Shown piece by piece: positions 23,775 to 50,856 of a stretch of DNA of 64,000 nucleotides. A program made the translations under genes and the position numbers. How positions within the stretch are numbered: position 1 is the stretch's first letter; each line of letters opens with the position of its first letter. The DNA is from Promethearchaeia archaeon. Lineage in GTDB: Archaea; Asgardarchaeota; Lokiarchaeia; Sigyniarchaeales; SOKP01. The notes under the pieces are model-generated. The model searched no databases and was not told the origin of the DNA. It saw only the letters and a program-made list of their open reading frames with translations. The DNA is taken from positions 128,001-192,000 of the forward strand of contig JAHQWG010000028.1 in NCBI GenBank assembly GCA_029856045.1, read 5' to 3'.

Positions 23775-24329
23775 TTATAAATAACGAATTTCAGGTTCAA
23801 TTTTCTCCCTTGACAAAGTTAAAAACCCATATGAGTTAATATCCGTAAATTTCTTATCAGTTGGGGTTCCGGGATTAATGAAATATTGATTATCAACCTT
23901 CTCGGTTAATGGCTTGTGTATGTGTCCAAATAATATAATGTGATATTTTTCCAAATCAATATGTTTCTTTAAACGTCGAATCACCATATTAGGACCACCC
24001 CAACCATGTAATAATAAAATGTTATATCCATACGCAGTTAATTCTATGCGTTCAGGCAATTTAGAATTTATCTTCGAATCATCCATATTCCCCCTAATTC
24101 CAATAACTTTATCCCTTCCAAATATATCTTGCAAGCCTTCATACACGCTATAATCCGTAAAGTCACCCAAATGAAATACATAATCCACCTCCTTATCTAA
24201 AAAATCATCAATAATTACTTTAGGAATTTCTGCACATCGAGAAGGGATGTGAGTATCTGCTATCAAACCAATAAAAATTTCATCTTTACTATCATCAATC
24301 ATAAGAAGATACCCAACTTTTGGACTCAA
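23775..24329 (-). CDS. YfcE/MJ0936/Vps29-family metallophosphoesterase
   Basis: ADTHIP, HLGD, RGNMD, LHG, GHIH, INPGT motifs; probable ATG start near 24302. Confidence 0.9.
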   Translation of the reverse strand: MSPKVGYLLMIDDSKDEIFIGLIADTHIPSRCAEIPKVIIDDFLDKEVDYVFHLGDFTDYSVYEGLQDIFGRDKVIGIRGNMDDSKINSKLPERIELTAYGYNILLLHGWGGPNMVIRRLKKHIDLEKYHIILFGHIHKPLTEKVDNQYFINPGTPTDKKFTDINSYGFLTLSREKIEPEIRYL

Positions 24330-24478
24330 TTTTTGAGATATCTTATTAGTAGAAATTATTTAAATACTTTAAACAATATTAAATTAATATAATTTAATTA
24401 ACATTAATTTAAGAGAATTCTTATAAATTATATAACAATCTTTCTTTATCAAAATTAATAGAGGAAATTTATTTAATA

Positions 24479-24486
24479 GGAGAGGA
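24479..24486 (+). promoter_or_regulatory. Shine-Dalgarno-like GGAGAGGA ahead of the ATT start of the small GTPase
   Basis: GGAGAGGA followed by TTAAAT and in-frame ATT at 24493. Confidence 0.6.
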
Positions 24487-24492
24487 TTAAAT

Positions 24493-25113
24493 ATTCCAAG
24501 TCGTCGCGGAGATGGAACACTTGTATTCAAAGTTGTATTCTGGGGTCCCTCTTTAGGAGGGAAAACTACTGCTTTAGAATGGGTTTACAAGAAGGAGGGG
24601 CTTGCTTCAGGTGATATGCAGCAAATAGCTGACCCAACTGGAAGAACCCTCTTTTTTGACAGAGTTGTCGCTCGAGTAAGCAATGTAGTTTTTCAAGTAT
24701 ATACCGTTGCTGGCCAGAGACGCCATAAGTTCCAGAGACGAACGGTCCTCAAAGGAACTGACTGCATCCTCTTCTTTTGGGACAGTTTAATCGACCAGTG
24801 GGAAGAAAATATATGGAGTTTAAAAGAATTATTACAATTTTATGGAGATAAATTAATTTCTAAAAGTTTTTCTGACCCAGCGGAAGTTCCACTCGTTGTT
24901 TGTGCAAATAAACGTGATTTAGAAGATATTGTAGAGATAAATAAGATTCGCGAAGTTCTTGATAAAGCTAAGTTAAATCAAACGTTGGTCTATGAAACGA
25001 TCGCAATTACCGGAGTTAATGTGAAGCGAGGATTTGTTTATGCTGCACGCCAGGGGGTGCTAAATCATTATAAAAAACTTCAGGGCGAAGTGTCCGAGCA
25101 AGAGACTGCGTAA
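24493..25113 (+). CDS. MglA-like small GTPase (Ras superfamily); real start upstream of the called ORF, probably ATT
   Basis: In-frame extension reads IPSRRGDGTLVFKVVFWGPSLGGKTT (P-loop) before the called ATG at 24616; RTLFFD, TVAGQ, NKRD, ETIA motifs. Confidence 0.88.
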   Translation: MPSRRGDGTLVFKVVFWGPSLGGKTTALEWVYKKEGLASGDMQQIADPTGRTLFFDRVVARVSNVVFQVYTVAGQRRHKFQRRTVLKGTDCILFFWDSLIDQWEENIWSLKELLQFYGDKLISKSFSDPAEVPLVVCANKRDLEDIVEINKIREVLDKAKLNQTLVYETIAITGVNVKRGFVYAARQGVLNHYKKLQGEVSEQETA

Positions 25114-25139: not shown

Positions 25140-27338
25140 TTAGATTATTTCTTGAACAATTTTATTTATTTCATCTAAAATATTGCTAATTTTTTCTTTT
25201 ACTTTTATTACGCTAATTTTTTCATCTTTTTGGATAATATCATTTACTTTTTCTTCTGATTTCATACCAATCTTTGATAATTTTTGATGATTAGAATTGT
25301 TGGGATCAAATTCAGGTATGGAGAAATCAAATGGTCGTTTATGAATATGGCGACTACTTTTTACAATCTTGATATTTTCACTAAGGATGGGTGCATTTAA
25401 AATACTTGTTAAATAATAGGCTTCTTCCTTGTAATTAGTTGAGAAATAATAATTTTCAGAACAAATAATGATTTTTTCTATCTCATTATTAATTACTGCA
25501 GATTTTATATTGGAACCGCTTGCGTTGTAAACTACTAGAAATTTTTTATTTGAATTTTGTTTGCTTAATTTATTCCAATAGTTTAGATTATCAAAAAGGG
25601 TGTTAATATTGCTTGTTCCTTTCTTGAATTTCTTGTAGGAATTATTAATTTTATTATAAAACTTTTCTCCGTAAGGAAGTTTTTCAAGGTATTTCTTAGA
25701 GAAATTTAATTTATCGTTAACAGGAAGAAAAATATTTCTTATTTTTTTTATGTAAAATGGAACGAGATCTTTATTCAAAAATGTTTTAAAATGAAAATTA
25801 TTTTCAATTAATTCTTCTTTAAAAAAATTTTTATTCCAAGGTGGTTTGGCTTGTTTTATTGAGTTTATATCAGGAGAAATTATTAAAATATTATCAGATT
25901 CCTGAACACCAACTATACAAAAATAAGTTAAAGCTCGAGGGACTAATGTAGCTCCTTGAAAGAATCTTTTTTTGTAATAGCTTGTTGAGAACTTTTTTAA
26001 TTTATGGTATTGCTCACTTGGAATAATAGATTTTGCACCTTGTTCGCTTATCTCAACAGAGAAATAATTGGTTTCTTTAATTAAATTCAAATTTTGGTCA
26101 AATATTTTTGCAGGAATTGGATATTTACTTTCAATTAAAGTTTTAGATATACTATTAATCTTATTTTGGGAATAATCAAATTTTGATTTGAGTATTATGA
26201 AATCCATATTAAAAAAAGTATATTTTTCAAAATCCCAGATTTCTAAATCATAGAAAAACTTGAAAGCTCGAAATTTTAAGCAGTGATCACCGGTTAAGAC
26301 GCTTTTAGTTAAGATTAAAAAAATAGTTCCATTATTTTTTAGAAATAATTTGGGGGTCTGGTAAAAAAATAATGAGGCTATCTCGATATGAGTAATATAT
26401 TGACTCTTAGGTTTTATTCCCAATCTATCTGCTAAATTTCTAAGATTAATTTGATATTTTTTATCATTTACATCTTTATATGTTAACCATGGAGGGTTTC
26501 CGATTATTAAATCAAATTTATTTTTAAAATCTTGATATGGAAATAGGAAATCATCTGTAGGATTTAATGGATCAAATCGATAAAAATTGACGGTAGGCAA
26601 AAAGTCCTCTAAAATATTATATATATCTTGAATATTTAAAAGGAAATTTGCAGTAGTTACTAAAATTGCTATTGGGTTTATGTCTAATCCGTAAATATTG
26701 TTTAAATTTTTTATTTTCTCTTTATTATTTAGGTCAGAATTTAGTATTATTTTTATTATTTCCATTAAAAACATACCTGAGCCACATGAACAATCAAGAA
26801 CTTTCATGCCTAATGAATAAGCATCTTCAATCATCAATATAGCTAGGTTTTTTGGAGTGAAATACTCTCCTTTTTCATGTCGAGCAGATTGATTAATCAT
26901 TTCTTGATAAATATGAAAAAATAAATCTTCATTTGAAATTTTATAATTCCCTATTTGATCTACGATTAAATTAGTAAATGAATCAGCATTGGAAAGCCAA
27001 TTGAATATCTCATTTATTTTTAAATGCTTTAATTTTTTATTAAATATTTCTTTTGTTTTATTTTTTTCTTGAATATTATGTAATTGTCTCTCTATGAAAT
27101 GTAAAATAATGGTCTTTACTAAATAATATAGATATGTATGGTTTAGGAATAGTTGGTGTGTTAGATTTTGTGATTTATATAATTTTTCAAAAGATTTCTT
27201 CCATTTGTTAAAATAAAAATCATAAGTTTTTCTTGATTTTCTTTTTGATTGATTTAAGTATTTAATTGAATTTTGAAAAAAAGCAGATTTATTTCCAAAC
27301 AATGTTGAGAGTTTTCTTGAATCTATAATAGAGTTCAT
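25140..27338 (-). CDS. N6-adenine DNA methyltransferase (type IIG/Eco57I-like MTase + TRD region)
   Basis: GEYFTP, motif I VLDCSCGSGMFL, GLDINP, motif IV IIGNPPW, C-terminal TRD-like region; no recognisable N-terminal nuclease motif. Confidence 0.88.
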   Translation of the reverse strand: MNSIIDSRKLSTLFGNKSAFFQNSIKYLNQSKRKSRKTYDFYFNKWKKSFEKLYKSQNLTHQLFLNHTYLYYLVKTIILHFIERQLHNIQEKNKTKEIFNKKLKHLKINEIFNWLSNADSFTNLIVDQIGNYKISNEDLFFHIYQEMINQSARHEKGEYFTPKNLAILMIEDAYSLGMKVLDCSCGSGMFLMEIIKIILNSDLNNKEKIKNLNNIYGLDINPIAILVTTANFLLNIQDIYNILEDFLPTVNFYRFDPLNPTDDFLFPYQDFKNKFDLIIGNPPWLTYKDVNDKKYQINLRNLADRLGIKPKSQYITHIEIASLFFYQTPKLFLKNNGTIFLILTKSVLTGDHCLKFRAFKFFYDLEIWDFEKYTFFNMDFIILKSKFDYSQNKINSISKTLIESKYPIPAKIFDQNLNLIKETNYFSVEISEQGAKSIIPSEQYHKLKKFSTSYYKKRFFQGATLVPRALTYFCIVGVQESDNILIISPDINSIKQAKPPWNKNFFKEELIENNFHFKTFLNKDLVPFYIKKIRNIFLPVNDKLNFSKKYLEKLPYGEKFYNKINNSYKKFKKGTSNINTLFDNLNYWNKLSKQNSNKKFLVVYNASGSNIKSAVINNEIEKIIICSENYYFSTNYKEEAYYLTSILNAPILSENIKIVKSSRHIHKRPFDFSIPEFDPNNSNHQKLSKIGMKSEEKVNDIIQKDEKISVIKVKEKISNILDEINKIVQEII

Positions 27339-27463
27339 AGTAGAATTGAATTAAAATTTGCTTTAATATATAAATAAATCTTGTTCCTAATAAAAACAGA
27401 TGAAATTATTAATTTAAATTTAGGAATTAAATGATATGTTTTAAAAATCTTTTTTTATGGGCA

Positions 27464-50175: not shown

Positions 50176-50856
50176 TTACTTTTTATCATACTTTTTTAAA
50201 AATTCATCATCAATAGGTGCGGTTCCATTTCCATATATATGATATAATGCTGTTCTTCTAGCGCATTCATAAAAACTTCTATATACATCCCTTTTTAAAT
50301 CATATAGTGCGCAAGTTTCAAAAATAATAGGGTTCCATAATGATAATTTGTTAGGTGGAGAATACCATAATCCTTCTTCCTTTAAAATATGCTCAAATTC
50401 ACTGGTACCAATTGTTTCATCTAAGTCCTTTTTATTTAACATTATAACCATAGGAATTTCTTTTATTAAATCTCCTTGAGCTACTTTTTTTAATTCTTTT
50501 AATGATTCAATATTATCTTCAAAAAGATTAGTTTGAGAATCCGCAACGAATAGTACACCATCTGTTCCTTCGTATACTGTCTTTCTTAATGGAGAAAATT
50601 GAGTTTGCCCTGCAACGGTGTAAATATGGTAAAAAATCTTGGGAGTTTTTGTAGATTGAAAAATCCCTCTATCAAAGTATAAAGTAGAACCACTAGCCAT
50701 ATCTATTTTTTTTAAATCTCCTGTGGGTGTTATATCTTTCTTTTGCTCTTTTGTAAGACGATGTAGAGTGTCTACAATAGTAGTTTTACCAGAGCCTGCC
50801 ATCCCCCAGTATAATATTTTTATGTGTATTCGACCATCCTCTTCAATTCTTACCAT
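50176..50856 (-). CDS. MglA-like small GTPase, paralog 2
   Basis: KILYWGMAGSGKTT, TLYFD, TVAGQ, FVADS, NKKD, ETCA. Confidence 0.92.
   Translation of the reverse strand: MVRIEEDGRIHIKILYWGMAGSGKTTIVDTLHRLTKEQKKDITPTGDLKKIDMASGSTLYFDRGIFQSTKTPKIFYHIYTVAGQTQFSPLRKTVYEGTDGVLFVADSQTNLFEDNIESLKELKKVAQGDLIKEIPMVIMLNKKDLDETIGTSEFEHILKEEGLWYSPPNKLSLWNPIIFETCALYDLKRDVYRSFYECARRTALYHIYGNGTAPIDDEFLKKYDKK

Follow-up and report, generated by a model that had tools for sequence, protein, structure and literature searches.

A small GTPase gene related to bacterial mglA, in an Asgard archaeon of the class Promethearchaeia, begins at an ATT codon. The gene lies in a stretch of 64,000 nucleotides (hereafter the window) on contig C36 of a genome (G000) of 3.34 Mb and 29.4% GC, where its coding sequence occupies positions 24493-25113 of the plus strand (206 codons, followed by TAA at 25111-25113). 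Our main conclusion, held with a probability of about 0.85, is that translation of a full-length, functional MglA-like GTPase starts at AUU 24493, led by a Shine-Dalgarno (SD) site and using the initiator tRNA, presumably with reduced output. The gene belongs to a wider pattern in which this lineage tolerates, or uses, ATT, ATA and ATC (ATH) start codons behind strong SD sites, a pattern that also takes in the gene of the initiation factor aIF1.

The open frame and its start region

Read directly from the sequence, the open frame of the GTPase covers 24436-25113, starting immediately after an in-frame TAA at 24433-24435, and it contains no in-frame ATG, GTG or TTG from this stop to the ATG at 24616-24618, which encodes residue 42 (Met42) and is the start used by public gene calls. 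The segment encoding the P-loop GPSLGGKTT (24544-24570), identified by alignment to the P-loop of MglA and missing from the truncated gene calls, lies 15 codons 5' of that ATG. A sequence-only reading of the window had pointed out both the position of the P-loop and the lack of a canonical start between the stop and the P-loop, and both are borne out here.

The same reading had proposed initiation at ATT 24493-24495, and the features on which it drew are confirmed: the codon is in frame and is preceded by the SD site AGGAGAGGA (24478-24486, plus strand) with TTAAAT as a 6-nt spacer. The SD site matches seven of the nine positions of AGGAGGUGA, the complement of the 16S rRNA 3' end in the same genome (...GGAUCACCUCCU). 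By contrast, the start coordinate first given for the gene, 24479, falls in the SD site and not at the coding start. Across the genome, unambiguous starts show an enrichment in G at positions -14 to -8, and the distance between SD and ATT is typical of the genome's genes and equal to that of the other orthologs, AGGAG followed by 10 nt being equivalent to GGTGA followed by 6 nt. The paralog to which the GTPase had been compared also exists, on the minus strand at 50176-50856, with its ATG at 50854-50856, and begins MVRIEEDGRIHIKILYWG.

When all three frames of 24360-24492 are read, no ATG, GTG or TTG is found in any of them, and there is therefore no upstream ORF from which a shift could occur. 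A frameshift in, or fusion with, an upstream ORF was considered and rejected, given these 130 nt upstream without a canonical start in any frame.

The ATT codon is genuine and starts a protein under selection

The N-termini of about 30 orthologs, drawn from 35 genomes and derived from six-frame matches independently of gene callers, begin xPSRRGDGTLVFK at the codon aligned with 24493 or one before. ATT at this position, together with the same SD site, is present in four species-level genomes (G000, G001, G002 and G004) and in 15 further contigs from separate NCBI, ENA, JGI and SRA assemblies, and the SD site is identical in all 19 ATT-bearing sequences, bar one base in two contigs. An assembly or sequencing error concealing a true ATG, for which nothing speaks beyond its prior plausibility, is therefore excluded for all practical purposes, as the same codon recurs in species-representative genomes and contigs obtained from different samples with different assemblers. 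ATG alleles do exist (L042-44, L153 and L016), but they are clearly distinct sequences.

The ATT alleles encode a protein under strong purifying selection. None of the 19 carries a frameshift or a stop, and comparison of the window with the alleles L013-15, which all have ATT, gives a dN of 0.013 and a dS of 0.55-0.65, i.e., a dN/dS of about 0.02, a value at odds with a dead gene. The 41 codons 5' of Met42 are as conserved as the remainder. These data weigh heavily on the idea of a start-loss pseudogene, or of a gene expressed only as a truncated protein from Met42. Gene callers do pick Met42, and an SD-like GGTGAT motif is found just 5' of its ATG (24610-24615), but this motif abuts the ATG with a spacing of zero, the product would lack the P-loop and strand 1, and the pattern of selection, maintained from the origin of the ATT onwards over a dS of about 0.6, already contradicts this reading, which we consider very improbable. 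A minor truncated product from Met42, made beside the full-length protein, is conceivable, though here too the zero spacing of GGTGAT has to be kept in mind.

Initiation at some other non-canonical codon further upstream, namely ATC 24448, ATT 24454 or the ATT of a 214-aa gene call, is likewise hardly probable. The last of these is the start of NCBI record P0123, placed 8 codons upstream in L013-type alleles, but it reads TTA in the window, while the window's own ATC 24448 and ATT 24454 lie beyond a stop that L013-type alleles have 10 codons upstream of their ATT. None of the three codons is served by an SD site, the upstream ATT overlaps the very SD that serves 24493, and the orthologs lack any such extension. 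Position 24493 is the sole near-cognate codon common to window-type and L013-type alleles. ATT 24493 as the initiation codon, put forward from the window's sequence, is thus upheld by the aligned N-termini of the orthologs, the retained SD site, the 19 assemblies and the dN/dS of about 0.02.

The protein is an MglA-like GTPase

Matches of the protein in Pfam are weak, to Arf and Ras, with a score of 36 bits for Arf (PF00025) against a gathering cut-off of 22.3, whereas structures of MglA match far better, the best solved relatives being MglA of Myxococcus and Thermus (PDB 5ymx, 3t12 and 6h17; E ~1e-21). The motifs GPSLGGKTT, NKRD and YTVAGQ align with GPGLCGKTT, NKRD and YTVPGQ of MglA, the G3 motif having Thr in place of Asp (TxxGQ), as expected of MglA-like GTPases, and GRTLFFD aligns with DRTLFFD and ERTLFFD. 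In MglA, the RTLFFD segment carries the catalytic intrinsic arginine. Counted from the ATT, the N-terminal region is as long as that of MglA, to within one residue. Members of the Arf family have an N-terminal amphipathic helix and a Gly2 for lipid modification; the N-terminus found here, M-PSRRGDGTLVFK, is charged and has no Gly2.

The archaeal protein and the MglA proteins of Myxococcus and Thermus thus have in common the P-loop GPxLxGKTT, RTLFFD, TVxGQ in place of DxxGQ, and NKRD. However, their identity is only about 35-40%, and the Asgard gene has no adjoining MglB/roadblock gene in the window, its neighbours being a metallophosphoesterase gene and a methylase/Eco57I-like gene. Roadblock genes are present at other sites in the genome, e.g., G000:C36:237518-237994. 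Of 41 related genomes, 35 carry an ortholog at 68-98% identity, essentially as a single copy; the GTPase is slowly evolving and probably important.

The two neighbours have histories of their own. The metallophosphoesterase gene (Metallophos_2 by Pfam; 23775-24302, minus strand, ATG start) is divergent from the GTPase gene. In most genomes of the family the two genes are adjacent, tail-to-tail with the metallophosphoesterase on the downstream side; only in this genus does it stand head-to-head upstream. It follows that either the GTPase or its neighbour has been inverted here, so that the GTPase acquired a new upstream region. The gene downstream of the GTPase (25140-27350, minus strand) varies among otherwise near-identical strains (loci L154-L168), where the same slot holds either an Eco57I/N6-methylase-like gene of about 732 aa or unrelated genes of 139, 212, 363 and 433 aa, and it looks like a variable restriction-modification slot.

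Start-codon history across orthologs

The codon aligned with 24493 is ATG in most genomes, TTG in three, GTG in two, ATT in G000, G001, G002 and G004 and, independently, in G006 (with TAG directly upstream), CTG in G012 (taa ccg CTG), and ATA in G036 and G040 (tga tga aat ATA) as well as at locus L061. By locus, the independent near-cognate starts stand behind nearby stops at L018 (tag ATT), L024 (taa ccg CTG) and L038/L040 (tga tga aat ATA), and L061 (ATA) is likewise independent. On a maximum-likelihood tree of 34 GTPase orthologs, 33 of which could be scored for their start codon, near-cognate starts (ATT, ATA, CTG) are found in 9 of 33 and trace back to at least five origins from ATG, each beside an ATG sister. 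In two control genes from the same genomes, non-canonical starts number 1 of 30 for the paralogous GTPase and 0 of 23 for the neighbouring metallophosphoesterase (1 of 53 together), and the corresponding excess in the GTPase has a Fisher p of 6e-4 counted by sequences and 0.03 counted by events, both overstated in that relatives are not independent. All nine near-cognate orthologs have an SD of 5-7 nt at an aligned spacing of 6-7; in canonical-start orthologs the SD measures 0-7 nt, with a mean of 4.5.

Alignment of orthologous 5' ends, which the sequence-only reading had named as the way to see whether ATT is conserved across the Lokiarchaeia, shows that it is not: ATT is restricted to a sub-genus clade plus one other tip, and most orthologs have ATG. 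The ATT of the window, confined to a clade within one genus, is thus young, and would have arisen from ATG by a single G-to-T change in a 29%-GC genome and then been kept within that clade. The other near-cognate origins are tip events, as would be expected if they were slightly deleterious but tolerated and not a device under selection, and such shallow origins also fit single-base changes of ATG that SD-led mRNAs can tolerate. On the other hand, this ortholog group gains near-cognate starts more often than the two control genes, an excess which suggests that a low output of the GTPase is harmless or favoured, and a weaker form of the regulatory idea survives.

Several GTPase orthologs (L029, L030, L032, L036, L058 and L061) carry inserts of 28-45 nt at differing positions of the coding sequence; the inserts bring in stops or break the frame, and contain an inner hairpin. 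The window copy has none. Six of eight inserts conform, with precisely the length required, to a pattern of 4-bp helix, 3-nt bulge and inner helix, and from this architecture they are probably tRNA-type (bulge-helix-bulge) mini-introns. The window's own genome may contain such elements as well: in the closest paralog of the second GTPase (G000:C27:170169-170831, plus strand; 77% identity with 50176-50856), two TAA codons stand in frame, and the counterparts of this paralog in G001, G002 and G004 show a single one; these may be mini-introns.

Putative leader, promoter-like block and a predicted leaderless ATG allele

Upstream of the GTPase, a promoter-like block of 42 nt (24352-24393, plus strand), including the TATA-like box TTTAAATA (24359-24366), is almost invariant across window-type, L013-type, L153 and L042-44 alleles, the synonymous sites of which are far diverged, a degree of conservation that suggests promoter function. 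Between this block and the start codon lies a putative 5' leader of about 100 nt (24394-24492, plus strand), which can be aligned among the ATT alleles and with the two ATG alleles L153 and L016; L042-44 have lost it by deletion. An Rfam search of 24300-24560 gave no match, and folding of the leader with the early coding sequence (z-score -0.8) gave no sign of a structured switch.

The L042-44 sequences, found on metagenome contigs, represent the closest ATG allele, with a protein one residue different from that of the window apart from the start. They keep the TATA block, but the ~100-nt leader and the SD site are gone and the ATG stands 25 nt after TTTAAATA, a geometry that predicts a leaderless mRNA. 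Their first ~100 coding bases differ from the window at 27 positions, all synonymous, and the remainder is nearly identical, which points to recombination at the 5' end of this allele. The genes flanking L042-44 differ from those of the window on both sides. Leaderless initiation needs AUG, whereas SD-led initiation can tolerate near-cognate codons; the contrast offered by L042-44, with neither leader nor SD and with an ATG, fits this rule.

ATT, ATA and ATC starts across the genome

A scan for ORFs whose coding signal begins 15 or more codons 5' of the first canonical start yielded 33 candidates in the genome, the GTPase included, from a crude codon-usage model that under-scored the GTPase itself (body score 10) and therefore biases the list towards genes of typical codon usage. 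Among 20 candidates tested, a complete Pfam domain begins 5' of the first canonical start in 13, which encode a Ras/Rab-like GTPase, an SDR, an aldehyde:ferredoxin oxidoreductase, a POR-type oxidoreductase, a UBC-like protein, a roadblock protein, an AAA ATPase, a hydantoinase, a PFL-like enzyme, TFB, Orc1/Cdc6, an ERCC4 nuclease and a zinc-ribbon protein.

The class is also visible statistically. At the tops of coding ORFs, a 5-mer SD stands 5-9 nt before ATT/ATA/ATC in 66 of 2132 cases, as compared with 142 of 12813 for other codons (2.9-fold lower, p = 9e-11) and 51 of 5248 for five AT-rich control codons (p = 4e-10), and the excess of SD plus ATT/ATA/ATC corresponds to about 40 genes in the genome. 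Apart from TFB and aIF1, at least 10 genes (L066-L085, on contigs C35, C51, C9, C47, C36, C27, C25 and C1) combine a complete Pfam domain 5' of the first canonical start with a nearby SD and ATT or ATA; among them are the SDR, AOR, POR, UBC-like, AAA ATPase, PFL, Orc1/Cdc6 and ERCC4 nuclease genes, the Rab-like GTPase gene at C35:99358-99888 and the roadblock/MglB-like gene at C36:237518-237994.

For three of these genes, orthologs bear out the ATH start. The Rab-like GTPase has an ATT start in three genomes, and the SDR starts with ATT here and with ATA in three relatives. In TFB (L075, G000:C53:11207-12163; L100-L113), the zinc ribbon precedes the first Met. AGGTG invariably stands before the start codon of TFB, which is ATC in four genomes of this genus and ATA in a fifth; three other genera have ATT. 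Several of the ATH starts of the Rab-like GTPase, TFB and SDR have a stop directly upstream.

A further case is aIF1 (SUI1; L128:1384-1773, G000:C27:190766-191113), whose whole frame lacks ATG. Its start is ATA in this genus, while nine or more other genera of the family (L129-L152) have ATT or ATC, an ATH codon being present in every family genus examined, behind a conserved AAGGTWGTGA and often 2-4 codons after a stop; sister families have TTG or ATG. This arrangement resembles, by analogy, the autoregulation of infC or eIF1.

The initiator tRNA is normal: its anticodon is CAU, it carries an A1:U72 pair, and its anticodon stem contains three G:C pairs. A special initiator reading Ile codons was also considered, but only the CAU initiator was found among the 35 tRNAs that ARAGORN detected in this intron-rich genome. 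A search of the literature on non-canonical starts in Asgard or other archaea returned nothing specific, although such work may have been published elsewhere.

Mechanism and regulation

The most probable mechanism is one in which the mRNA is SD-led: AGGAGAGGA would pair with the 3' end of 16S rRNA and put AUU in the P site, where the ordinary initiator tRNA (CAU) would read it with a third-position mismatch, yielding an N-terminal Met and an output below that of AUG. AUU starts behind SD sites are known from infC and pcnB of E. coli. The archaeal gene is like these bacterial ones in its AUU, its probable dependence on an SD and on initiator tRNA, the lower yield expected and the relevance of initiation-factor stringency. 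It differs in its archaeal host, which has the eukaryote-type factors aIF1, aIF1A and aIF2, in a codon that is not deeply conserved and no autoregulatory loop involving the GTPase protein, and in being one of dozens of such starts in its genome rather than a rare exception. Degenerate triplets as bacterial starts have been the subject of a dedicated study (PMC5499595).

In eukaryotes, eIF1 and eIF5 autoregulate through the stringency of start-site selection (PMC3326321), and the likeness to aIF1 lies in a fidelity factor with a poor start of its own, the ATH start of aIF1 being found in at least 10 genera. Unlike the eukaryotic case, aIF1 has a non-AUG codon behind an SD rather than an AUG in poor context, and the archaeal example is known at the level of sequence. 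Archaeal aIF1 reportedly disfavours non-AUG initiation complexes (PMC6237735). Since aIF1 itself starts at ATH, the yield of all ATH genes may follow the level of aIF1, and a shared dependence on this level is possible by analogy.

Whether the AUU of the GTPase is a dedicated regulatory device, i.e., a weak start selected in this gene so that the protein is made only when stringency drops, for instance at low aIF1, is a separate question, and we regard such a device as unlikely. The excess of near-cognate starts among its orthologs (9 of 33, five origins) over the two control genes (1 of 53) would fit it, as would the retention of ATT over a dS of about 0.6 (none of 19 sequences has drifted to ATA or ATC), the ATH start of aIF1 throughout the family and the reported discrimination of aIF1 against non-AUG complexes. 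However, ATT occurs only in a sub-genus clade while most orthologs have ATG, the leader has neither significant structure nor a known RNA family, the same type of start is found in about 40 unrelated genes, and the nearest relative has reverted to, or kept, ATG. The infC-like regulated AUU that had been inferred from the window thus finds only partial support: the excess over controls and the start of aIF1 speak for it, and the youth of the codon, the unremarkable leader and the ~40 unrelated ATH genes against it.

A broader version would make the ATT/ATA/ATC starts a translational regulon, in which aIF1 autoregulates in the manner of IF3 or eIF1, the ATH genes co-vary with aIF1, and the whole represents an archaeal precursor of eukaryotic stringency control. 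Putative members would be the MglA-like GTPase, the Rab-like GTPase, the roadblock protein, TFB and Orc1/Cdc6. We put this forward tentatively, as a possibility that is at present rather doubtful.

Consequences for annotation and for the evolution of start-site selection

The prediction that standard gene callers would truncate the GTPase proved correct, a 165-aa product from Met42 being present in NCBI, ENA, JGI and Logan. The 90% cluster of the protein includes many such 165-aa members, among them P0126 (NCBI, JGI, Logan, ENA), which corresponds exactly to residues 42-206 of the window protein, along with 197-aa members starting at CTG, one 214-aa NCBI member from the unsupported upstream ATT, and 206-aa members that are alleles with a real ATG. 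Public records show a highly conserved Asgard GTPase either without its P-loop (165 aa) or wrongly extended (214 aa), and about 40 genes per genome, TFB, Orc1/Cdc6, Rab-like GTPases and aIF1 among them, suffer from the same annotation fault. Domain integrity would be misjudged in any survey of Asgard 'eukaryotic signature' GTPases that draws on such calls.

Taken alone, the GTPase is an ordinary, if well-supported, example of a known phenomenon, and its value is the corrected annotation of an Asgard GTPase. To the wider phenomenon it adds an ATT start of dated origin, control genes, and a sister allele that has reverted or is probably leaderless. More broadly, near-cognate starts behind SD sites are tolerated or used by archaea closely related to eukaryotes, and the start-codon proofreading factor aIF1 is itself made from a near-cognate start. 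Whether stringency-based translational control predates eukaryotes can now be tested.
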